Sequence record: SRR20825010_29
Reading direction: 5' to 3' (one strand)
Length of the DNA: 39,786 nucleotides
Under the pieces are notes generated by a model. That model did no database searches. It saw nothing but the letters and a program-made list of their open reading frames with translations, and was not told the origin of the DNA. Shown here one piece after another: positions 8,881-32,965 of the stretch. A program made the position numbers and the translations under genes. How positions within the stretch are numbered: the stretch's first letter is position 1; each line of letters opens with the position of its first letter.

Positions 8881-9993
8881 TTACAATCTAAAGCCGATAC
8901 CGTATTCAATGGATTCTGCTTTTGCCCAATGAGAGTGTACTGCAACGGTAGCGAATATTTTATCATTAAAAAAATAACGTTTTAAACCCAAGCGACTGTA
9001 TATTCTATTTTCAAATTCATACGGCCAATACACGTAATACCCCAACTGAGTTACAAAAGCAATTTTATTAAACCGCAACTCATGTCCTACAAAAATAGCT
9101 ACGCGTTTGTAGTCTTCATCGCCTGAAAGATTATCTTCTGGATATGCAATAGAACGGTATTTAATTAATTCTTTTAGAAAAGTTGAAAAGAAAACGTCTA
9201 CACCGCCAGTAATCGTGCTTTTATAGCTTAGTCGTTTATCTACATAGGCTGAAAGTTCATAAAAAGGTTCTTGTCCAAGGCCTATAACATCACTTTCATT
9301 CAATCCTGTTCTAAATTCAAAATTGTATTTAAAACGTTCTGAATGATTTTTTTTAAGCGAATCTGCTTCTTTAGGAATATATTCTGGAAACTCTTTATAA
9401 TCTAATTGATAACTAAGCCCCGCATTTAGCGCAAAAGTATTTGTGCTATTATTTGGCGCTTTAAGATTCCCATTACTATAATGAAACAATGTAACCCCAG
9501 CATGAAAACCTAGGCCTTTCCATATATTTTCACGGACAAAATTTCCTTTTAAATAGGTCGTACTTAAAAACTGTGTTCCATATGCATTGTTTATAAAATT
9601 TGTTTCAGCATCATAAGGCTTCTCAGCATATGCAACTCCTGTTCCTACAGAAATCTTTAAATTTCTATTTAAAAAATACCAGCTTAAATGGCTATAAACA
9701 CCTGTAAGATTTCCTAAATATTCGTTATGCATGTTCTGATATGCAACTGAAAAACCCCAATCTGGATAATTATATAAACGCTCCCATTCATTAAACCCAT
9801 AGGTTTTTATGTTATAGGAAAGTATCATTCCAGTGGGATGGCCAGTAATTAAATGCTGAATATCTGGATTGTGTTCTATAATGCTTCCGTAGAAAAAATC
9901 GGCTTCAAGCGAAACTGGTTTTAATTCCTTTTCCTGTGCATAAAGTGAAAAACTTAAAAGAAAAAGTAAAAAGACGAATAAAAGATGTTTCAT
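8881..9993 (-). CDS. Outer-membrane beta-barrel, acyloxyacyl hydrolase/PagL-like family (copy 2)
   Basis: Signal peptide, YNYPDWGFS, HYSNG motif, C-terminal YGIGFRL. Confidence 0.75.
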   Translation of the reverse strand: MKHLLFVFLLFLLSFSLYAQEKELKPVSLEADFFYGSIIEHNPDIQHLITGHPTGMILSYNIKTYGFNEWERLYNYPDWGFSVAYQNMHNEYLGNLTGVYSHLSWYFLNRNLKISVGTGVAYAEKPYDAETNFINNAYGTQFLSTTYLKGNFVRENIWKGLGFHAGVTLFHYSNGNLKAPNNSTNTFALNAGLSYQLDYKEFPEYIPKEADSLKKNHSERFKYNFEFRTGLNESDVIGLGQEPFYELSAYVDKRLSYKSTITGGVDVFFSTFLKELIKYRSIAYPEDNLSGDEDYKRVAIFVGHELRFNKIAFVTQLGYYVYWPYEFENRIYSRLGLKRYFFNDKIFATVAVHSHWAKAESIEYGIGFRL

Positions 9994-11894: not shown

Positions 11895-12851
11895 TTAAAA
11901 TACCTGAGAAGCTATTTCTCTAATATTGTTACTTTTTCCCATAGAATAATAATGCAAAAAGGGAACACCAGCCTTCACCAACTCTTTACTTTGTGCAATG
12001 CACCAATCAATACCAATCTGCCGTACTTCTTTATTATCTCTGGCTTTCACCACTTCCTTCACCAATGCATCAGGCAAATCCACTTTGAATCTGTGGGGAA
12101 TAAGGTTTAAATGAGTTTTTACGGCTATTGGCTTTAAGCCAGGAATAATTGGGACTGTTATACCTTCAGCTTTGCATTTTTCTTGAAATCTGAAAAACTT
12201 TTCATTATCAAAAAACATTTGAGTAACAATATATTCCGCTCCATTTTCTATTTTCCTTTTTAGAAATTGAATATCACTTTCACTACTCGGCGCTTCCATA
12301 TGTTTTTCAGGATATCCAGCCACTCCCACACAAAAATCTGTTGGATTGGTGTTTTGAAGGGCATCGTCCAAATAGATCCCTTTATTTAAATCACTTAGTT
12401 GCGAAACCAAATCGCAAGCGTATTTATGACCGTTTTTTTCTGGCGTAAAATAGGTTTCGCTTTTTACCGCATCACCTCGAAGTGCCATTACATTGTCAAT
12501 TTCTAAAAATTGAAGATCTATCAAAAAATTTTCAGTTTCTTCTTTCGTGAAACCTCCGCAAAGAATATGTGGCACTGCATCTACATGATACCGGTTTTGA
12601 ATTGCCGCACAAATACCAACAGTTCCTGGGCGTTTCCGAACTATTTTTTTTTCAATCAAACCGTCCTTTACTTCCTTAAAAACATACTCTTCACGATGAT
12701 ACGTAACATTTATATATGGCGGTTTAAACTCCATCAATGGATCAATATTATTGAAAATAGAATGAATATTCTCCCCTTTTAAAGGTGGTAAAATTTCAAA
12801 TGAAAACTGAGATTTTCCGTTTCCGTTTTTTATGTGTTCCGTTACTTTCAT
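11895..12851 (-). CDS. metF: Methylenetetrahydrofolate reductase
   Basis: FSFEILPP, ALRGD, GVAGYPEKH, IVTQMFFD motifs. Confidence 0.95.
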   Translation of the reverse strand: MKVTEHIKNGNGKSQFSFEILPPLKGENIHSIFNNIDPLMEFKPPYINVTYHREEYVFKEVKDGLIEKKIVRKRPGTVGICAAIQNRYHVDAVPHILCGGFTKEETENFLIDLQFLEIDNVMALRGDAVKSETYFTPEKNGHKYACDLVSQLSDLNKGIYLDDALQNTNPTDFCVGVAGYPEKHMEAPSSESDIQFLKRKIENGAEYIVTQMFFDNEKFFRFQEKCKAEGITVPIIPGLKPIAVKTHLNLIPHRFKVDLPDALVKEVVKARDNKEVRQIGIDWCIAQSKELVKAGVPFLHYYSMGKSNNIREIASQVF

Positions 12852-15575
12852 CTAGTCTGCAAGGTTTGTTTTAAGCCAGTTTGTGGCTTCTTCAATATTC
12901 ATGTTTTTTCGTTTCGCAAAATCTGCAATTTGGTCTTCTTTAATTTTTCCAAGTCCAAAATAACGCGCTTCAGGATTTGCAAAATAATACCCAGAAACTG
13001 AAGCTGCTGGCCACATTGCCAAACTTTCGGTAAGCGTAACATCTATGTTTTTATTTACTTTTAAAATTTCCCAAATAATTTTCTTCTCCAAATGATCTGG
13101 GCAAGCTGGATACCCTGGCGCGGGACGAATTCCTTTATATTTTTCTGAAATTAAATCTTCATTTGTAAGATTTTCCTCCGAAGCATAACCCCAATACTTT
13201 GTGCGCACCTCTTTGTGAAGATATTCCGCAAAAGCTTCTGCTAAGCGATCTGCCAAAGCTTTTACCATAATAGCGTTATAGTCGTCATGGTCTGCTATAT
13301 ATTTTGCAGCTAATTCTTGCGTGCCAAAACCTGTACTCACGCAAAAACAACCTATATAATCCTGAATTCCGCTTTCCTTTGGCGCAATAAAATCTGCCAA
13401 TGCAATATTAGGTTTTCCTTTTGCTTTTTGAGATTGCTGGCGGAGTGTTTGGAAAATAGGGTTTTTAGTTTGTAATTTATCAGTTGATGTTTTCAATAAA
13501 ATTTCATCATCATTAATTGTATTTGCTTCAAAAATGCCAAACACTGCGCGAGCCGTCAATAATTTTTCTGAAATAATTTTTTCAAGCATCTTTTTTGCAT
13601 CTTCAAAAAGTTCTGAAGCTTGCTCGCCCACAATTTTATCTGTCAAAATATTTGGATACTTTCCGTGCAATTCCCAACTTCGGAAAAAAGGCGTCCAATC
13701 TATATATTTAGTTAATAAATTTAAATCAAAATCTTTTAAAACTTGAACGCCCAGATGATTTGGTTTTACTATTTCTGAAGCACTCCAATCAATCTGAAAT
13801 TTATTTTTCCGTGCTTCGGAAATAGGCAAATAGGTTTTTACTTTTTGACGCTTTAAAAAATCATTTCGGAAGGTATCGTATTCTTTTTTCAAGTTTTCCT
13901 TATAAACCCCCGAAGTTTCCTTTTTCAATAAATCGCCAACAACCGTTACTGCGCGTGAAGCGTCGTTTATATGAACCACAGCACATTCGTATTGCGGATC
14001 AATTTTTACAGCGGTATGTGCTCTACTTGTGGTGGCGCCTCCAATCAATAACGGAACTTTAAAATTTTGACGTTGCATTTCCTTCGCCAAAAAAACCATT
14101 TCGTCCAATGATGGTGTTATCAAACCACTTAAGCCAATAGCATCCACGTTCTCTTCTTTTGCAGTTGCAATTATTTTTTCAGGTGGAACCATGACGCCCA
14201 AGTCTATAATTTCATAATTATTACACGCCAAAACAACGCCAACTATGTTTTTTCCAATGTCATGAACATCGCCTTTTACAGTTGCCATTAATATTTTCCC
14301 CGCATTTTTTGAATCATTTATATGCGGGTTTTTTAGTTTTTCTTCTTCAATATATGGAAGTAAATATGCCACTGCTTTTTTCATAACGCGTGCACTTTTT
14401 ACCACTTGAGGCAAAAACATTTTTCCGCTTCCAAAGAGGTCGCCAACTACATTCATTCCCGTCATTAAATGACCTTCAATAACTTCAATAGGTTTTGAAG
14501 TGCTTTGTCTAGCTTCTTCAATATCTTTCAATATAAATTCATCAACTCCTTTTACCAGCGCTCTCGTAATACGGTTTTGCAACGGTTCTTCCCGCCAAGA
14601 AAGATCTATCTTACTTTCTTTAGCAGTTCCTATTACGCTTTCTGCAAAATCCAATAATCGTTCGGTGGCGTCCTCACGACGATCGAACATTACATCTTCT
14701 ACATGTTCTAATAGCTCTTTTGGTATATCGTCATAAATCTCCAACATTGTAGGGTTTACGATACCCATGTTCATCCCAGCCTGAATTGCGTGATACAAAA
14801 ACACAGAATGCATTGCTTCGCGAACAGGATCATTGCCGCGAAAACTAAACGATACATTGCTAACTCCACCACTTACGCTAACATGGGGAAGATTTTCACG
14901 AACCCAGCGCGTTGCTTCTATAAAATCGATTGCATTTTTTCGGTGCTCATCCATTCCTGTGGCAACAGGAAAAATGTTTAAATCGAAAATAATATCTTCT
15001 GGGGCAAATTTTACTTGATTTACCAAAACATCATACGATCGTTTGGCAATTTCTATTCTTCGGTTGTAAGTATCTGCTTGCCCCTTTTCATCAAAAGCCA
15101 TCACAATTACCGCGGCTCCATACCGTTTTATAAGTTTTGCATGATGAATAAATTCTGCTTCACCTTCTTTTAAACTAATAGAATTTACAACACATTTTCC
15201 CTGTACAACCTGCAATCCTGCTTCAATAATCTCCCATTTAGAACTATCAATCATAATTGGAACTCGCGATATATCTGGCTCCGCAATTACAAGGTTTAAA
15301 AACTTTACCATTGCTTCTTTGCCATCAATCAAGCCATCGTCCATGTTTATGTCGATGATTTGAGCACCATTTTCAACCTGCTCACGTGCTACGGAAAGTG
15401 CTTCCTCAAAATTTCGTTCTTTAATAAGCCGAAGAAATTTCTTTGAACCTGCCACATTGGTTCGTTCTCCCACATTTATGAAATTGCTTTCTGGGGTAAT
15501 GATTAAAGGTTCTAAGCCTGATAATTTCAGGTATTTTGGTTGTTTGTTGTTGGTTGATGGTTGATGGACTTTCAT
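12852..15575 (-). CDS. metH: Cobalamin-dependent methionine synthase, pterin/cobalamin/reactivation part of a split MetH
   Basis: [40 protein letters not shown]; lacks the homocysteine-binding domain. Confidence 0.95.
15534..15568. repeat. Five 7-mer units, left arm of a 35-bp inverted repeat flanking the four-helix-bundle gene
   Basis: TTTTGGT TGTTTGT TGTTGGT TGATGGT TGATGGA; lies within the first codons of metH ([11 protein letters not shown]). Confidence 0.85.
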
Positions 15576-15586
15576 TATATTTTCTT

Positions 15587-15928
15587 TTAATAATTAATAA
15601 ATCCATTCAACAGTTTTTTACAACTCTCGATTTGAAAAATGATGTCATTCAATTGATTTTCAGTTATAAAATTTTGATCTGATGCAAGAAGCAATTGAGT
15701 TTCTATTTCATAAAGTGATCCGCGCGAAACATATAAAAATTGAACTGTGTCTTTTGAAGTTCTTCTTCCGAAACCTTCTGCAATATCTGAAGGGATTGAA
15801 ACCGCACATCTTCTTGTTTGATTTGTCAATCCATATATTTCCTCTTTCGGAAAACTTTTCGTCAATTCATAAACAGTATTGACAAGCTTCCGAGATAATT
15901 TCCAAACATCCAAATCTCTATACTCCAT
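15587..15928 (-). CDS. Four helix bundle protein (23S rRNA IVP / Avd-like family)
   Basis: [45 protein letters not shown] family motifs; 113 aa. Confidence 0.93.
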
Positions 15929-15936
15929 AATATTTC

Positions 15937-15971
15937 TCTATCAACTATTAACCAACAACAATCAACTAAAA
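15937..15971. repeat. Five 7-mer units, right arm of the 35-bp inverted repeat
   Basis: TCTATCA ACTATTA ACCAACA ACAATCA ACTAAAA; 30/35 identical to the reverse complement of 15534-15568; contains the dehydratase stop codon (15966-15968). Confidence 0.85.
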
Positions 15972-16907
15972 AGGTAAATTTTTCAAATCCACATTTCCGC
16001 CAGAAATTATTATTCCTACTTTCTTGTTTTTGAAGCTGTTTTTTTCACGAAGTAATGCTGCAAAAGCAACTGCACTACTGGGTTCAACTATTATTTTCAG
16101 ACGCTCCCAAATAAGTTTCATCGCCCCAATAATTTCAGTTTCTTCAACCCTGATTACTTCTGAAACAAGTTCTTTTATAATTGGAAAATTTATATCGCCA
16201 AGAAAAGTTTTAAGGCCATCTGCTATAGTCTCTGTGGAATTGTTGAATTCTATTTTTCCACTTTTCAAACTTCGATACGCATCGTCAACTTCAAAAGGTT
16301 CACCGCCAATAGTTTTACAGTTTTCACCAAAATATTTTGCTGAAAGTGAAGTTCCAGCAACTAGCCCACCACCACCGACTGGTGTGAAAATAAAGTCTAA
16401 ATTAGGGTACAATTCTAGCAACTCTGCCGCTGAACTTGCATTGCCAAGAATTACATTTTTATCGTTTGAAGGGTGAATAAAAGTAGCTCCCGTTATTTTT
16501 TGAATTCGTGCAGCTTCGTTTTCACGAGCGATTGCTGTAGATTCAGATTCTGTTATTATTCCGCCATAGCCTTTTACGGCTTCTTTTTTTACTTGGGGAG
16601 CATTTTTTGGCATCACAATATATGCCTTAACTCCAAGATTTTTTGCAGCTAATGAAAGGGCTTGCGCAAAATTTCCCGAAGAATGTGTTACAACTCCTGC
16701 TTCTTTTTGTGCTTCAGAAAGTTGCAAAATAGCATTGGTTGCGCCACGCATTTTGAAAGCACCCATCTTTTGAAAATTCTCGCATTTAAAAAATATTTCT
16801 GCTCCCACAAGTTCATTTAAATAAGAAGATTTAAGCACAGCTGTTTTGTGAACGTATGGTTTTACACGTTTACAGGCTTCTTCAACTTCTTTCTTTGTGG
16901 GGATCAT
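15966..16907 (-). CDS. PLP-dependent serine/threonine dehydratase or serine racemase-like enzyme
   Basis: KCENFQKMGAFKMRGA, HSSGNFAQA, PVGGGGL, IISGGNVD; no ACT domain. Confidence 0.88.
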   Translation of the reverse strand: MIPTKKEVEEACKRVKPYVHKTAVLKSSYLNELVGAEIFFKCENFQKMGAFKMRGATNAILQLSEAQKEAGVVTHSSGNFAQALSLAAKNLGVKAYIVMPKNAPQVKKEAVKGYGGIITESESTAIARENEAARIQKITGATFIHPSNDKNVILGNASSAAELLELYPNLDFIFTPVGGGGLVAGTSLSAKYFGENCKTIGGEPFEVDDAYRSLKSGKIEFNNSTETIADGLKTFLGDINFPIIKELVSEVIRVEETEIIGAMKLIWERLKIIVEPSSAVAFAALLREKNSFKNKKVGIIISGGNVDLKNLPF

Positions 16908-16909
16908 AT

Positions 16910-17917
16910 TTAATTATTTTGAGTTTGAAAAACAGGACGTGGCTTGTAGTTTGAAGCAATTTCAGCTATCGCTTGTATGTGTTCAGGCGTTGTGCCACAG
17001 CAACCACCAATAATATTCACTAACTGTTTGTCTAAATATTCTTTTACCTGTGATGCCATTTGCGTCGGACTTTCATCATATTCTCCAAACGTGTTTGGCA
17101 GTCCGGCATTTGGATAGGCGCTAATAGCAAGATTGGTGCGGTTAGCAATCACTTCAAGGTGAGGCGTAAGTTGTTTGGCGCCCAAAGCACAATTAAAACC
17201 AATGCTTAATAGCGGGATATGCGAAATGGAAATTAAAAACGCTTCAGCCGTTTGCCCAGAAAGTGTACGCCCAGAAGCATCTGTAATGGTTCCACTTATC
17301 ATAATTGGGATATCGATATTCCGTTCTTCTTTTATTTCATCAATTGCAAAAAGTGCGGCTTTGGCATTTAGCGTGTCAAAAATAGTTTCTACCAAAAGTA
17401 AATCTACGCCGCCATCTATTAAAGCTTCACATTGTTGTTTGTATGCTACACGTAATTCTTCAAAAGTAACGGCGCGAAAACCTGGATCGTTTACGTCTGG
17501 GCTCATGCTTGCTGTTTTGTTGGTTGGCCCAATAGCACCAGCTACAAATCGTGGTTTGTTTGGTTCTTTTTTTGTGAATTCCGCAGCAACTCTTTTTGCA
17601 ATTTTAGCCGATTCATAATTCAGTTCGTAAACCAAATCTTGCATATCGTAATCTGCCATTGCTATTGTAGTGCTAGAGAAAGTGTTTGTTTCAACAATAT
17701 CTGCCCCCGCAGCAAAATATTTTGAATGAACCTCAGCAATTGCATAGGGTTGTGTTAGCGAAATTAAATCGAAATTTCCCTTCACTGATTTGTGAAAATC
17801 TTTAAATCGTTCCCCACGAAAATCTTCTTCCGAAAATTTATAGCGTTGTAGCATTGTCCCCATAGCACCATCGAGAATCAATATTCGGTTTTGTAACGCT
17901 TTTTGTATTTTATTCAT
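16910..17917 (-). CDS. metH: Homocysteine-binding (N-terminal) subunit of split methionine synthase
   Basis: LDGAMGTM, ETNTF, GFNCALG, IIGGCCGTTPEHI zinc ligands. Confidence 0.93.
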   Translation of the reverse strand: MNKIQKALQNRILILDGAMGTMLQRYKFSEEDFRGERFKDFHKSVKGNFDLISLTQPYAIAEVHSKYFAAGADIVETNTFSSTTIAMADYDMQDLVYELNYESAKIAKRVAAEFTKKEPNKPRFVAGAIGPTNKTASMSPDVNDPGFRAVTFEELRVAYKQQCEALIDGGVDLLLVETIFDTLNAKAALFAIDEIKEERNIDIPIMISGTITDASGRTLSGQTAEAFLISISHIPLLSIGFNCALGAKQLTPHLEVIANRTNLAISAYPNAGLPNTFGEYDESPTQMASQVKEYLDKQLVNIIGGCCGTTPEHIQAIAEIASNYKPRPVFQTQNN

Positions 17918-19524: not shown

Positions 19525-21657
19525 TTAGTTTTCTTTATCGCTAATTCTCAAAATATCACCAAAAACACCACGAGCCGTTACTGCTGCACCCGCTCCTGCA
19601 CCTTGAATAACTATTGGATTATCACCGTAACTTTCGGTATAAATTTCAAAAATGGAATCGCTACCTCGAAGTGCTCCCAACATACTATTTTTTTGAACCG
19701 ATGCTAAATTAACCGTCAAAATTGCCCCTGTTTCCTTTGAAAGATCGCCGTGCAAATCTGCTACGTATCGAAAAACAGAATCTTTAGGTTGATTTTTCTT
19801 TTTAATTTGAAATGGAACATCTAGTTCTTTCAAGCGCTCCAAAAACTCGGTTTTTGAAACATTTCTTAAATCTTTTGGAATTAAATTTTGAATGGAAATA
19901 TCTGAAAATTCATTGTGTAAATCCAATTCACGAGCCAAGATAAGTAATTTCCGTCCAACATCATTTCCACAAAGATCCTCGCGCGGGTCGGGCTCAGTAA
20001 AACCTTTATCTATTGCAGAATTTAGCACAGAGCTGAATGACCTATCTTCTTCCGAAAAAGTATTGAAAATATAACTCAGCGAGCCCGAAAACACACCGCG
20101 AATTCGCGTAATATTTTCCCCAGAAAGATGTAAAAGTTTAATGGTATCTATAAGTGGAAGTCCCGCACCTACATTAGTTTCATACAAATAGTGTCGTTTT
20201 TTTGACACAAGTTTTTCTCGAAGATTTTGATAAAAACCTAAATCTAATGTATTTGCAATTTTGTTTGACGACACCAAATGAAAACCATTTTCTACAAATG
20301 TGGTATAATTCTGCACAAAGTCAGAATCGGCTGTGTTATCTACCAAAATTAGATTTTGAAGATTATTGGTTTTCGCAAAAGCAATAACATCCTGCGGATT
20401 GTATTTTTCGCCTGTTTTAGATTTTTCTTCTAACCAGTTCTCACCCAATCCATTTTGCTGAAGTAATACCGTTTTAGAATTAGCAATTGCAAAAATATTT
20501 AGCACCAAATCTCTTCTACGAGAAATTTCTTCTTTAGATGAAATTATCTGATTAACTAAATGACTTCCTACGTTTCCGTGGCCGAAAATTGCAATGTTTA
20601 TTTTCTTCTTTTTTATGTTGTTTAGGTCAATTCGGTTCAAAACCGGATTATCCAATACTTGCGTGCTCATATTTTCTTTCTTTGTAGTTTTTTCTGAATT
20701 AAAAATCGGGTCCAGAATTCCCGCCAATTGTTCGTATTCTATTAAAAATGCATCGTGTCCATGAATGGAGTTTATTTCAGCAAAATGCACATTGTTTTTT
20801 ATCGGCTTTAGAGCAAAATAGGTCTCTTTTATTTCTTCATTTAAATAAAATCCATCGCTATCTATTCCTACCAAATGAATGTTTCCTTCAATTTTTGAAG
20901 CCAAATTATTAAAATTAGCTTCCTTCGTTTCAATGTTTGCAGTAGTTAACAAGTGATTCATTAATTTATATGCTTGCAATTGAAAACGTTTTTCCAAAGT
21001 TGCACCGTGATAAAGCAACCAACCTTCAACATTAAACAACGCCTCGTTCTCACTACTACTTCTATTGAATTTCTGCTTAAAAGACTGCGGGGTTCTATAA
21101 AAAGTCATTGCATGTACACGGGCATCGTGAAGAGGTTTTTCAGAATTGTTTAAAATTTGTTTTTGCACTCTGCATTGTGCAATTAACCAATCTGTAGCCT
21201 TCCAATCAGTGGCAATAGGAATTAAATTTTGAAATAAATTAGGTTTCAAAACTGCCATTTGCCAAAGAATACTTCCACCCAAAGAACCTCCAATTGCTGC
21301 AAAAACGGACGATATTTCAAGTTGCTCTAATCCATTTAAAAACCACTGGGCAATATCGTAAACCGTGACATCTTCATAATTATCAAGTAAAAAATCATCA
21401 AAACCGTTGCCAGGAATATTGAAGGAAAGTATGGTATATTGATTAATGTCGATACACTTTTTAGCACCAATCAAATCTTTCCACCAGCCTTTTTCCCCAC
21501 AAACATTGCTGTTCCCAGTTAGTGCATGAGTTACCAAAACCACAGGAGCAGTACCCAATTTCTTCCCAAAAACTTGATACGTTAATGGCAACTTTTTAAA
21601 AAGAAATCCGCTTTGGGTTTTATAATTAACAATAGTAAGCTTTGAAATGTGCGACAT
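19525..21657 (-). CDS. Fusion: homoserine O-acyltransferase (MetX-like alpha/beta hydrolase) + homoserine dehydrogenase
   Basis: N-half HALTG, GGSLGG, HGHDAFL; C-half GHGNVG, YETNVGAGLP, TEPDPREDL, GAGAAVTA; no aspartokinase domain. Confidence 0.88.
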   Translation of the reverse strand: MSHISKLTIVNYKTQSGFLFKKLPLTYQVFGKKLGTAPVVLVTHALTGNSNVCGEKGWWKDLIGAKKCIDINQYTILSFNIPGNGFDDFLLDNYEDVTVYDIAQWFLNGLEQLEISSVFAAIGGSLGGSILWQMAVLKPNLFQNLIPIATDWKATDWLIAQCRVQKQILNNSEKPLHDARVHAMTFYRTPQSFKQKFNRSSSENEALFNVEGWLLYHGATLEKRFQLQAYKLMNHLLTTANIETKEANFNNLASKIEGNIHLVGIDSDGFYLNEEIKETYFALKPIKNNVHFAEINSIHGHDAFLIEYEQLAGILDPIFNSEKTTKKENMSTQVLDNPVLNRIDLNNIKKKKINIAIFGHGNVGSHLVNQIISSKEEISRRRDLVLNIFAIANSKTVLLQQNGLGENWLEEKSKTGEKYNPQDVIAFAKTNNLQNLILVDNTADSDFVQNYTTFVENGFHLVSSNKIANTLDLGFYQNLREKLVSKKRHYLYETNVGAGLPLIDTIKLLHLSGENITRIRGVFSGSLSYIFNTFSEEDRSFSSVLNSAIDKGFTEPDPREDLCGNDVGRKLLILARELDLHNEFSDISIQNLIPKDLRNVSKTEFLERLKELDVPFQIKKKNQPKDSVFRYVADLHGDLSKETGAILTVNLASVQKNSMLGALRGSDSIFEIYTESYGDNPIVIQGAGAGAAVTARGVFGDILRISDKEN

Positions 21658-21698
21658 TCGTTATGAGGTTTTTTTACTTGATAATTAAATTAGTGGCA

Positions 21699-22994: not shown

Positions 22995-23121
22995 TTTTCT
23001 AATTTTTTTTGAGTTAATTAAAAGATTAAACCAAAAGTCAATTCCGAAATTAATTCGGAACAATAGAAAAATGTTAAAAAGAAAAAATGAAAAGCAATCT
23101 CAGATGAGAAATTGTCTTGTC

Positions 23122-23236
23122 GTTATCTATCGCCAATTTTGAAATTTCAAAATTGTTGTAGAATGTAGCACCTTCATTCCGAAGAAAGGGTTGCTAAGGC
23201 GTCATAGGGTCTAATCCCTCGGCCTTTCTTGATAAC
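23122..23236 (-). ncRNA. SAM-I (S-box) riboswitch
   Basis: Minus strand GUUAUCAAGAAAGGCCGAGGGAUUAGACCCUAUGACGCCUUAGCAACC...GGUGCUACAUUC...AGAUAAC; P1 GUUAUC/GAUAAC; leads the met operon. Confidence 0.93.
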
Positions 23237-23266
23237 ATTTCAATAAAGTTTTGAACTTTGTGAGCG

Positions 23267-23355: not shown

Positions 23356-23370
23356 CCAAAGACAATTAAA

Positions 23371-23424
23371 GAGGAAAGATTTGACTGATTGCAACCTCCA
23401 TAAAAAATGCTAAAGGCAGTTAAA
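23371..23424 (+). ncRNA. SAM-II class riboswitch upstream of metK
   Basis: GAGG-AAA-GAUUUGACUG-AUUGCAA-CCUC...AU-GCUAAA-GG-CAGUUAAA; P1 GAGG/CCUC, pseudoknot UUGACUG/CAGUUAA, conserved GAUUU, UGCAA and GCUAAA elements. Confidence 0.75.
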
Positions 23425-23480: not shown

Positions 23481-24734
23481 ATGGCCTATTTATTTACTTC
23501 AGAAAGTGTTTCTGAAGGACACCCAGATAAAGTTGCGGATCAAATTAGTGACGCACTTTTAGATAATTTTTTAGCTTTTGACCCCGAAAGTAAAGTTGCA
23601 TGTGAAACATTAGTGACCACAGGACAGGTTGTTTTGGCAGGAGAAGTAAAAAGCAACACCTACCTTGATGTGCAAACCATTGCTCGAGATGTAATCAATA
23701 AAATTGGGTATACAAAAGGCGCTTACAAATTTAGCGGTGATTCGTGTGGCGTTATTTCTTTAATTCATGAACAATCACAGGATATAAACCAAGGTGTAGA
23801 TCGCGAAAACAAAGAAGAGCAAGGTGCTGGAGACCAAGGAATGATGTTTGGCTACGCTACAAACGAAACTGAAAACTACATGCCATTGGCATTAGATATT
23901 TCACATAAAATTTTAATTGAATTGGCTGCACTTCGCAGAGAAGAATCTGAGATAACGTATCTACGTCCAGACTCAAAAAGCCAAGTTACAATTGAGTATA
24001 GTGACGATAATATTCCACAAAAAATTGTGGCTATTGTAGTCTCTACACAACATGATGAGTTTGATGCTGATGAACCAATGCTGAAAAAAATCAAAAAAGA
24101 TATTGTTGAAATTTTGATTCCAAGAGTAATAAAACAACTTCCAGAATATGTTCAGAAGTTATTCAATGACGATATTGTTTATCACATAAATCCAACTGGA
24201 AAATTTGTAATCGGTGGTCCTCACGGAGATACTGGTCTTACAGGAAGAAAAATAATCGTTGACACCTATGGCGGAAAAGGTGCGCATGGCGGTGGTGCTT
24301 TTAGCGGAAAAGACCCTAGTAAAGTAGATAGAAGTGCAGCTTATGCTTCCAGACATATCGCCAAAAACTTAGTTGCAGCAGGTGTTGCAGACGAAGTTTT
24401 AGTGCAAGTGTCGTATGCAATTGGGGTGGTGGAACCAACTTCAATTTTAGTTAACACCTACAATTCATCAAATGTGAAACTTTCTGATGGTGATATTGCT
24501 AAAAAAGTAGCAACAATCTTTAATATGCGACCAGCTGCTATAGAAAGTAGATTAAAGTTGCGCAACCCTATTTATTCTGAAACTGCTGCATACGGGCATA
24601 TGGGACGTAAACCAGAAATGGTTTCAAAAGTTTTTGAAAGCCCTTATAACGGTAGAATAGAAAAACAAGTAGAGCTTTTTACATGGGAAAAACTGGACTA
24701 TGTTGACCAGGTAAAAGTAGCTTTTGGTATCTAA
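23481..24734 (+). CDS. metK: S-adenosylmethionine synthetase
   Basis: [28 protein letters not shown]. Confidence 0.98.
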
Positions 24735-32002: not shown

Positions 32003-32965
32003 CTAAAACTCTATGTGTGGAAGTCGTTGTTGAAGTAAAGCAATTTTTTGCTGAAGTTTCGCGCAAAACTGAAGGTGTTCGTCGCTTTTTGCATTGAAAG
32101 GCCTGTGCGCCAAACCATTTTGAATTATAGCAATTTCCTTTTGAAGTGATACTGTTTCTGAAGAAATCCATACCTCTGAAAATTTCTGCCATATTATTTC
32201 AATCGCAGTTTTATTTGGGTGAAGCATATCTTCCGCATAAAAACGATAATCGCGAAGCTCGTCCATCATCATTTCAAAAGACGGAAAATAAAAGGATTTT
32301 TGATTTTCGATTGACGATTGACGATTTTTGAAGTGGTGAATTGAAGAAATTAGATGCGCTTTGCTTAGTGAATTTTCTGCAAAACCATCTTTAATATGCC
32401 GTACTGGCGAAACGGTATTAATTACAGTAGCTTTCGGATTTACTTTTGAAATTTGATTAAAAATATTCTGAATACTTCCGTAATTTTCTTCAATGGAAAG
32501 CAATTCTTTTTTAAAATAATGCTGCGGAAGTTTATGGCAATTAGCTACTATTTTATCTTTTTCAAGATGCCGATATACCCACGAAGTACCATAAGTGAAA
32601 AGAATATGTGTTGCAGAAAAAAGAGATTCTCGTAAGTTTTGAAGTGCCGAATTAAGGTTCGCTAAAAGCTCATTTTTAGCTAAGGCAGAAAGCTCAGAAT
32701 GTACTTCAAAACACTTCCAAACTCCGTTGTGTTCAAAAATACTTTCTTCTGTAAAAAGCCGCTCTTCAATTGCGCGTGTAATTAAATTTTCAATTGAAAC
32801 TGGATTGAAAATAACGCCAAACGGGTTTTGTAAATTCTGAAACTTATAATAATCTAACTTTGCCCCAATATTTTCCGAAAAACAACTTCCTAACAAAAGT
32901 ATTTTTGAAGAATAATCTATTTGATTTTCCTCAGGTTTTAGTGGTATTTCGGTTTGAAGTTTCAT
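32003..32965 (-). CDS. GSCFA domain-containing protein (SGNH-like)
   Basis: LLGSCFSENIG, NPFGVIFNP, VANCHK, TVSPVRH, DELRDYRFY..D.LHP. Confidence 0.92.
   Translation of the reverse strand: MKLQTEIPLKPEENQIDYSSKILLLGSCFSENIGAKLDYYKFQNLQNPFGVIFNPVSIENLITRAIEERLFTEESIFEHNGVWKCFEVHSELSALAKNELLANLNSALQNLRESLFSATHILFTYGTSWVYRHLEKDKIVANCHKLPQHYFKKELLSIEENYGSIQNIFNQISKVNPKATVINTVSPVRHIKDGFAENSLSKAHLISSIHHFKNRQSSIENQKSFYFPSFEMMMDELRDYRFYAEDMLHPNKTAIEIIWQKFSEVWISSETVSLQKEIAIIQNGLAHRPFNAKSDEHLQFCAKLQQKIALLQQRLPHIEF
32295..32329. repeat. Five 7-mer units inside the GSCFA coding sequence
   Basis: GATTTTT GATTTTC GATTGAC GATTGAC GATTTTT, translated as KNRQSSIENQKS. Confidence 0.65.

Follow-up and report, generated by a model that had tools for sequence, protein, structure and literature searches.

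How does a small gene come to lie between two genes of a methionine operon, enclosed by long inverted repeats that reach into the reading frames of both neighbors, and what do these repeats do? The question is raised by sequence record SRR20825010_29, a 39,786-nucleotide (nt) stretch of DNA referred to here as the window. In it, a 113-residue open reading frame (ORF) of the PF05635/TIGR02436 four-helix-bundle family separates a gene for a pyridoxal phosphate (PLP)-dependent dehydratase from metH-C, which encodes part of a split methionine synthase. We find that the ORF and its repeats represent one member of a widespread and non-random class of gene cassettes, each composed of a PF05635 gene and two inverted arrays of ca. 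7-nt units. We further propose, at a probability of roughly one half, that the stem formed by these arrays in operon RNA loops out or excises the cassette.

The inverted repeat consists of two 35-nt arms at 15534-15568 and 15937-15971 that are complementary at 30 of 35 positions (86%) and lie 368 nt apart, making them the longest of the 19 inverted pairs in the window (at least 20 nt long, arms at most 700 nt apart). The complementarity score of the flanks is 53 compared with 24 for the 95th percentile of 258 shuffles and 28 for the maximum of 170 shuffles, which excludes chance as the source of arm complementarity. All parts of the cassette are read from the minus strand. In the sense of the gene, the 5' arm (15937-15971) is a G/T-rich heptamer array (TTTTAGT TGATTGT TGTTGGT TAATAGT TGATAGA) that carries stop triplets in two of three frames and holds the dehydratase stop codon TAG (15966-15968). 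The cassette gene (15587-15928) starts 8 nt past this arm and is followed by a spacer (15569-15586) containing the metH-C ATG (15573-15575), with 11 nt separating the cassette-gene stop from this ATG. The 3' arm (15534-15568) is a C/A-rich heptamer array without a stop triplet in any frame and is translated in frame as residues 3-14 of the metH-C product. The 5' arm supplies the stop codon of the upstream gene, and the 3' arm together with the cassette-internal ATG supplies MetH-C with its start and an in-frame 10-residue N-terminal extension. Only the PF05635 gene and the metH-C start codon are enclosed by the arms. The cassette gene is co-oriented with the operon and has no evident promoter. 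No transposase or recombinase is found near it among the 14 ORFs annotated between 8881 and 25480, and the genes within ca. 8 kb belong to the methionine pathway or are otherwise ordinary. An earlier reading of the locus from its letters only (the sequence-only reading) had described the arms with their pairing, 7-nt period and contents, the intact host frames and the lack of a transposase, and our analysis agrees with it on these points. For the left arm (15534-15568), Tandem Repeats Finder reports a period of 7 with 4.6 copies of the unit TTGGTTG; the right arm is more degenerate and gives no call at a score of at least 30.

A recurrent cassette class

PF05635 genes were gathered regardless of context from five genomes and then from 30 more Flavobacteriaceae genomes. 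The survey set comprises 86 full-length, non-identical members with 150 nt of flanking sequence on record, drawn from Flavobacteriaceae and a small number of further Bacteroidota; each of ten Flavobacteriaceae genomes for which a count was made has between 2 and 16 matches to the PF05635 profile. Flank complementarity lies above the 95th percentile of shuffles in 68 of the 86 members and above the 95th percentile of swapped partners in 59. A period of 7 is the best fit for 49 of the 68 5' arms and 50 of the 68 3' arms, compared with 31 of 341 control pieces. The combination of periodic arms and a PF05635 gene at operon gene junctions, which the sequence-only reading had put forward from a single example, is therefore a recurrent arrangement. 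Within a cassette, the unit of the 5' arm and the reverse-complemented unit of the 3' arm are at most one base apart in 37 of 68 cases, while only 3.7% of pairs of arm units from different cassettes are that close.

The position of the cassettes relative to their neighbors is equally regular. Both neighboring genes are clearly co-oriented with the PF05635 gene for 68 of the 86 members, with 17 unclear cases and one of opposite orientation. The upstream stop codon falls inside the 5' arm in 33 of 67 cassettes and mostly within 8 nt of it otherwise. The downstream ATG is located past the 3' arm in 42 of 67 and, as in the window, inside or before the arm in 25; in 47 of 67 it lies between -16 and +24 nt from the 3' arm end. 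Arm polarity is fixed: C is scarce in the 5' arm (10.7%, with 24.2% G) and G is scarce in the 3' arm. The arm that closes off the larger number of reading frames is the 5' arm in 32 cassettes and the 3' arm in 15 (p 0.02).

Homologous genes also recur next to other copies of the same host gene. Among 80 metH-C loci, four carry one between metH-N and metH-C (L005, L010, L012, L038) and four more directly after metH-C (L024, L051, L054, L078). All eight possess periodic, mutually complementary arms whose unit varies by locus. Two of these loci are of the Cytophagia type and their cassette genes seem broken: at L078 (6760-7140) the profile match ends at position 65 of 109, and at L054 (6730-7220) it begins at position 18 after an apparent insert. 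The arms of both are still recognizable. A code linking each protein to its repeat unit was considered and rejected, as the unit cannot be predicted from protein identity (Mantel p 0.24) and close paralogues (70-88% identity) mostly have different units.

Could an ordinary small gene simply lie between two independent slippage arrays or terminator-like hairpins, with no cassette involved and any pairing functionless? Heptamer arrays are described as common slippage products in bacteria in the introduction of PMC4679880, solitary arrays mark many gene boundaries in relatives of the window, and other hairpin families occupy the same junction in Aequorivita. This explanation is nevertheless already disfavored, and we regard it as very improbable. 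Arms pair specifically with their own partners (59 of 86 members, as above), units match within and not between cassettes, the same layout surrounds the homologous gene in ribosomal RNA (rRNA) intervening sequences as described in the available portion of PMC4990558, and pairing of the outer with the distal arm is better kept than local pairing in all five long-form alleles discussed below.

Alleles of the dehydratase/metH-C junction

Aequorivita species are the nearest relatives of the window, the metH-C product being 87% identical to an A. todarodis protein. In a set of 57 Aequorivita genomes, 44 contain the dehydratase gene, the junction was taken from 40 and the dehydratase gene adjoins metH-C in 32. 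Nine of the 57 genomes carry an orthologous cassette (81-87% identity) at the junction, the ninth (G047) being identified by protein search only. A full orthologous cassette (80-87% protein identity) with TTGGTTG-type arms is found in eight of the 32 adjoining junctions (L118, L121, L122, L130, L132, L133, L143, L156) and an internally deleted remnant in one (L149). Gene-less hairpins with a short loop and 7-9-nt periodic arms make up a further 15, eight built of CTCTGTG-type units (CTCTGTG/CACAGAG; L119, L124, L129, L138, L141, L146, L147, L148) and seven of CTTTGCG-type units (CTTTGCG/CGCAAAG; L125, L126, L131, L134, L135, L140, L157, also L030). A third, unrelated inverted-repeat element (CGACAAGCTCAGC...) is present in four junctions (L127, L128, L139, L142) and is listed for L148 as well. 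The remaining four junctions are tight (L123, L136, L144, L150). A gene-less hairpin of the TTGGTTG type was not found at the junction; the unfilled alleles have other units or scars.

Some tight junctions look like deletion scars, judging from the sequence they retain. The junction of L136 keeps ...ACCCAACCAAAATACCT in frame and its well-supported sister L132 is filled, and the junction of L150 keeps the first codons of the cassette gene with the remnant L149 as its sister. Filled and differently filled alleles also occur in nearly identical surroundings: L130, which holds the cassette, and L128, which holds the third element, share flanks that are 96.5% and 95% identical and differ over exactly the interval between the dehydratase stop codon and the KYLKL codons of MetH-C. 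All ten filled alleles agree in the frame and length in which the 3' arm is translated (MK.[HQD]QP[STA]T..(.)QP[KR]YLKL), and in unfilled alleles MetH-C mostly starts with MK[IT]ENKKYLKL. One genus consequently offers the comparison of filled and empty sites that the sequence-only reading had in mind, with scarred and differently filled alleles in addition. On a weakly resolved flank tree (828 columns; 7 of 29 inner branches well supported), cassette presence requires nine changes.

The cassette protein matches Pfam PF05635 over profile positions 1-106 of 106 (E 2.5e-38, 131 bits, cut-off 33.8), NCBIfam TIGR02436 (E 2.6e-35, 120.9 bits, cut-off 24) and PDB 2GSC (E 7.7e-22). Comparison of nine orthologues (36 pairs) gives a median ratio of nonsynonymous to synonymous substitution rates (dN/dS) of 0.069, ranging from 0.03 to 0.14, at a dS of ca. 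0.87, and the gene is under strong purifying selection. Six residues of helices 2 and 3 are near-invariant (window numbering Q37, S44, N48, I49, E51 and E74), five of which are kept in the window. N48 is present in 85 of 86 aligned members and the sole exception is the window protein, which has D48 (codon 15785-15787). The window protein is also 4-5 residues shorter at its C-terminus than its orthologues (stop 15587-15589). In the eight full-length orthologous alleles the TAA of the cassette gene overlaps the metH-C ATG (TAATG), and the early end of the window protein removes this overlap. D48 and the early stop may mark the beginning of decay in this particular copy.

All close homologues (81-87% identical) in the 57 genomes are found at this one junction, the next best matches being 47-51% identical, and no close copy of the cassette exists at a second site. 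A target-site duplication at the window locus was rejected because the words that resemble each other in the flanks belong to the two host genes themselves and occur in unfilled alleles too. Membership in a transposon or miniature inverted-repeat transposable element family was likewise rejected, there being no transposase nearby, no target-site duplication and no second close copy. Occurrence at a single junction combined with a dS of ca. 0.87 and a dN/dS of 0.07 indicates that the window copy is old and selected rather than recently mobile. It is site-bound, has been inherited in part of Aequorivita and was lost by deletion several times. The mobile element of the sequence-only reading thus survives as a statement about the history of the cassette but does not fit the present copy.

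None of the listed runs that contain this DNA is recorded as RNA. Contigs of four DNA sequencing runs contain neither a cassette-less allele nor an alternative joint across the cassette. The assembly of one run breaks exactly at the left arm, with contigs ending at 15569 and beginning at 15560 (X4 records 9 and 14), and word depth spikes at the left arm (15537-15603) in two runs, which suggests that arm words recur elsewhere in those genomes.

Pairing of the arms and dispersed arrays

If the arms act in RNA, in the processing or regulatory role that the sequence-only reading put forward, an operon transcript initiated at the promoter of an S-adenosylmethionine (SAM) riboswitch would fold the two arms into a stem of ca. 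35 base pairs (bp) with the cassette looped out. This stem could be a substrate of ribonuclease III (RNase III), as in rRNA intervening sequences. It might also serve as a translational-coupling device leading from the dehydratase gene through the cassette gene to metH-C, in which ribosomes stopping in the 5' arm and at the cassette-gene stop would open the arm covering the first metH-C codons. In both cases, expression of the cassette would draw on the host transcript while harming it little. Folding predictions agree with such a stem, which on either strand is part of the minimum-energy fold and of the centroid fold, with a z of -2.4 for the sense strand (2 of 100 shuffles as good) and -4.2 for the antisense strand (0 of 100). 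Further support comes from five long-form Aequorivita alleles composed of a G arm, a ca. 100-nt spacer, a duplicate ATGAAA plus C arm, the gene and a second ATGAAA plus C arm. The distal C arm, on the far side of the gene, is the better partner of the G arm in each of the five (-36.6 to -44.7 kcal/mol, compared with -30.9 to -39.0 kcal/mol for the nearer duplicate), which we take as selection on the gene-enclosing stem.

The sequence-only reading had favored pairing on the antisense strand. Its counts for the window are correct: position by position, the arms form 30 Watson-Crick pairs, four G-T pairs, no A-C pair and one T-T mismatch on the plus strand, and the four G-T pairs correspond to A-C in the mRNA. 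Of the four A:C mismatches, one coincides with the dehydratase stop codon and two stem from G-to-A changes in the 5' arm of the window that orthologues, for example L118, L121 and L122, do not share (the orthologue arm comparison included 7 of 10 alleles). In an alignment of the 68 cassettes that scores the two transition types equally, the sense strand has 140 A:C mismatches and 105 G:U pairs (p 0.03; 31 vs 19 by locus). Duplex energies of -31.1 kcal/mol for sense and -32.4 kcal/mol for antisense do not differ significantly (p 0.10). Stop codons as the cause of the A:C excess were rejected: the A of an A:C mismatch falls within a stop triplet in 41 of 85 cases compared with 233 of 609 for a paired A, an enrichment too slight to explain the bias. 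There is accordingly a slight antisense lean and no sign of wobble-tolerant selection on sense RNA, which together represent mild evidence against a purely sense-RNA role. The claim of antisense pairing retains its counts and the direction of the bias, but the bias is weak and the duplex energies do not differ significantly. A process in which the strands are equivalent would fit the overall pattern.

A looping or excising stem in operon RNA has several observations to contend with. Selection on sense-RNA pairing predicts more G:U than A:C, and the weak opposite is seen (105 vs 140). The sense stem at the window locus is interrupted by five internal mismatches, 18 of the 86 family members lack significant arms, and a stem over the first metH-C codons could equally inhibit translation. 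In addition, D replaces the near-invariant N48 in the window, so this copy may be losing function. We place the RNA stem at about even odds.

Near symmetry of mismatches between the strands is what a cassette moving at the DNA level would also show. Here, the arms would be hairpin or array recombination sites and the RNA stem a by-product; a circular form containing the gene and one arm or hairpin would integrate Campbell-style, by means of host recombination functions, where an array of this unit is already in place and could be lost again by the same route. Direct repeats between the flanks, in the form of a duplicated arm or whole hairpin on either side of the gene, are present in 22 of 68 cassettes (for example L098 with 120 nt, L100, L099 and L086), and the ATGAAA plus C-arm duplicate on either side of the gene in the five long-form alleles has the same appearance. 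The near-identical flanks of L130 and L128 with different contents and a change exactly at the stop codon point in this direction too, as do solitary arrays of the same unit scattered through cassette-bearing genomes. On the other hand, the cassette and its surroundings lack a recombinase, there is no close copy at a second site in the 57 genomes, no gene-less TTGGTTG-type hairpin at the junction and no alternative joint across the cassette in the DNA contigs of the four runs, and a dS of ca. 0.87 indicates long residence. We consider DNA-level recombination an unlikely explanation of the cassette.

The solitary arrays raise the question of whether heptamer arrays act beyond the cassette. Matches to a TTGATGG pattern have a median of 32 in nine Aequorivita genomes with the window's type of cassette and 1 in 47 without it, with the remnant genome left out (Mann-Whitney p 8e-5, not corrected for relatedness). 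Of 20 solitary TTGATGG arrays inspected in two genomes (L215-L234; G013 and G011), 19 have no partner array within 400 nt, the exception being L216, and eight begin at the end of a same-strand ORF of at least 70 codons. These arrays are long, some comprising ca. 26 near-perfect units, and are located at gene boundaries. L234 consists of ca. 670 nt of mixed heptamer arrays with several units in a row. Arrays of three other cassette units, followed through five genomes, are each essentially confined to the genome of their own cassette, with 2, 0 and 12 matches there outside the cassette itself.

Such a distribution would fit arms that are binding sites, in RNA or DNA, of the cassette's own protein. 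Scattered arrays of the same unit would then be included among the sites, and the protein would regulate either its own gene or other genes that have an array next to their stop or start codon. The family is related to the nucleic-acid-binding Avd, by sub-threshold matches only, and shows an invariant polar stripe (Q37, S44, N48, E51, E74). The excess of TTGATGG arrays in cassette genomes, the confinement of the three other units to their own genomes and the eight solitary arrays at ORF ends are in line with this idea. It is difficult to reconcile with the failure of protein identity to predict the unit and with 70-88% identical paralogues that mostly have different units. Moreover, two of the three other units are barely or not dispersed beyond their own cassette, and the genomes G035, G036, G037, G016 and G007, which lack this particular cassette, contain 17-73 TTGATGG matches, with both arrays of G007 lying far from all nine of its PF05635 genes. 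We therefore judge binding by the encoded protein to be quite improbable.

A broader possibility, to which we give similarly little credence as a whole, is that the four-helix-bundle proteins and heptamer arrays form one genome-wide system. Unit arrays would spread to gene boundaries, G/T-rich after stops and C/A-rich before starts, and the protein would act on them in trans in RNA processing, translational coupling or array propagation. Cassettes would enter by array recombination with no dedicated recombinase, and rRNA intervening sequences would be the special case of a cassette that landed in rRNA.

Operon context and known relatives

The cassette lies within a minus-strand gene cluster. 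It is preceded by metH-N, the homocysteine-methyltransferase gene (16910-17917), and the PLP-dependent dehydratase gene (15966-16907; serine/threonine or hydroxyaspartate dehydratase family) that ends inside the 5' arm. It is followed by metH-C (12852-15575), encoding the pterin, B12 and activation domains of the split methionine synthase, and metF (11895-12851). Further methionine genes are located upstream of metH-N on the same strand, followed by a SAM riboswitch of class SAM-I (23120-23238, minus strand), which lies outside the cassette and heads the cluster. This gene order places the small gene deep within a riboswitch-led operon of ca. 10 genes. Not only is metH split, its halves are also separated by the dehydratase gene (15966-17917), an arrangement that among the 80 metH-C loci is otherwise seen only in the Aequorivita locus L030. 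A SAM-II riboswitch (23365-23423, plus strand) heads the divergent metK gene (23481-24734), so that SAM-I and SAM-II riboswitches stand back to back in one intergenic region with ca. 125 nt between them. An Rfam scan of the window returned these two riboswitches only, with no rRNA and no family matching the arms.

Other repeats of the window, which has a G+C content of 34.7% and contains no N, include the second-best inverted repeat (21377-21404 and 21660-21687; 28 nt, 89% complementary, 255 nt apart), spanning the 5' end of a homoserine acetyltransferase/dehydrogenase fusion gene and the preceding spacer. Two more period-7 arrays at 32295-32328 (GATTTTC, 4.9 copies) and 9942-9973 (AAAGTAA, 4.6 copies) have no obvious partner arm.

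In its operon form, the cassette represents a widespread kind of gene cassette that has not been properly described so far. It ties PF05635, a very large family of unknown function, and the unexplained heptamer arrays of bacteria to rRNA intervening sequences. It would be an operon-resident element whose arms provide host genes with stops, starts and linker peptides. A point for annotation is that MetH-C has a cassette-derived N-terminus here, and for experiments the Aequorivita junction provides natural filled, scarred and replaced alleles.

Among known systems, Avd of diversity-generating retroelements has a distantly related four-helix-bundle fold. The Avd profiles match the cassette protein below their cut-offs (bAvd, 33.1 bits vs 40; NF033474, 25.1 bits vs 80), and reverse transcriptase is absent among the 14 annotated ORFs; we rejected membership in this class on that scope, the rest of the window not having been scanned for a reverse transcriptase and no search aimed at template and variable repeats having been made. 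Heptamer arms are not known to flank Avd genes.

Integron cassettes are small, promoterless, host-expressed ORFs with an imperfect inverted repeat (attC) that is conserved in structure and not in sequence. The PF05635 cassettes resemble them as small co-oriented ORFs with no evident promoter that presumably depend on host or upstream transcription and are bounded by an imperfect inverted repeat, likewise conserved in structure and not in sequence. Unlike integron cassettes, they carry arms built of tandem heptamers on both sides of the gene and are scattered as single copies in operon junctions, with no array of cassettes at one platform and only a weak strand bias of mismatches. No integrase is present among the 14 annotated ORFs; a search aimed at IntI in the whole window or genome was not made.

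Dispersed heptamer repeat arrays exist in cyanobacteria as short tandemly repeated repetitive (STRR) sequences. Another parallel to the arms is provided by the TAACTGA arrays of marine Beggiatoaceae, tandem 7-nt units located at gene boundaries, which, as far as the accessible text of PMC4679880 describes them, have stops in all frames in one orientation, are open in the other, abut start and stop codons and were proposed to be tolerable between protein modules. In contrast to cassette arms, they are direct repeats with neither a partner arm nor an enclosed gene in that description. The terms 'helix bundle' and 'intervening' occur 0 times in PMC4679880.

PF05635 genes have been noted in operons before. 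According to the relevant passage of PMC3936711, 18 of them lie within cas loci, one example being the interval from cmr3 to cmr2, and were read as functionally associated with cas nucleases. Like the window cassette, they are wedged between operon genes and share the conserved motif; flanking repeats go unmentioned in that passage. A four-helix-bundle gene between those for guanylate kinase and nadD in Flavobacterium columnare is tabled under 'phage elements' in the part of PMC5524665 concerned. We found no account in the literature of heptamer-armed PF05635 cassettes outside rRNA, supplements such as those of PMC4679880 and PMC3936711 not being covered.

The closest published relative of the cassette is the ORF-bearing 23S rRNA intervening sequence. 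That of Coxiella burnetii, as presented in the available portion of PMC4990558, contains a homologous PF05635 ('S23p') ORF, a 28-bp terminal stem within which RNase III cuts, and, upstream of the ORF, heptameric repeats in tandem (two to three, in a strain-dependent copy number); intervening sequences in Leptospira, Xanthomonas and Brucella are cited there as well. Both systems combine a PF05635 ORF in sense to the host transcript with stem-forming inverted repeats, tandem heptamers in an arm and no transposase, and both have a sporadic distribution that is read as horizontal gain followed by vertical descent. RNase III cutting is established for the Coxiella intervening sequence and would apply to the window cassette by inference. 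The Coxiella ORF is reported to be decaying and probably untranslated, in contrast to the strong purifying selection on the window ORF (dN/dS 0.07). The window cassette further differs in its host, a protein-coding operon in which it sits between a dehydratase gene and metH-C, and in its arms, which take in a stop codon and contribute coding sequence to the gene that follows. It is consequently by host context and coding role that the operon cassette is set apart from its counterpart in rRNA.

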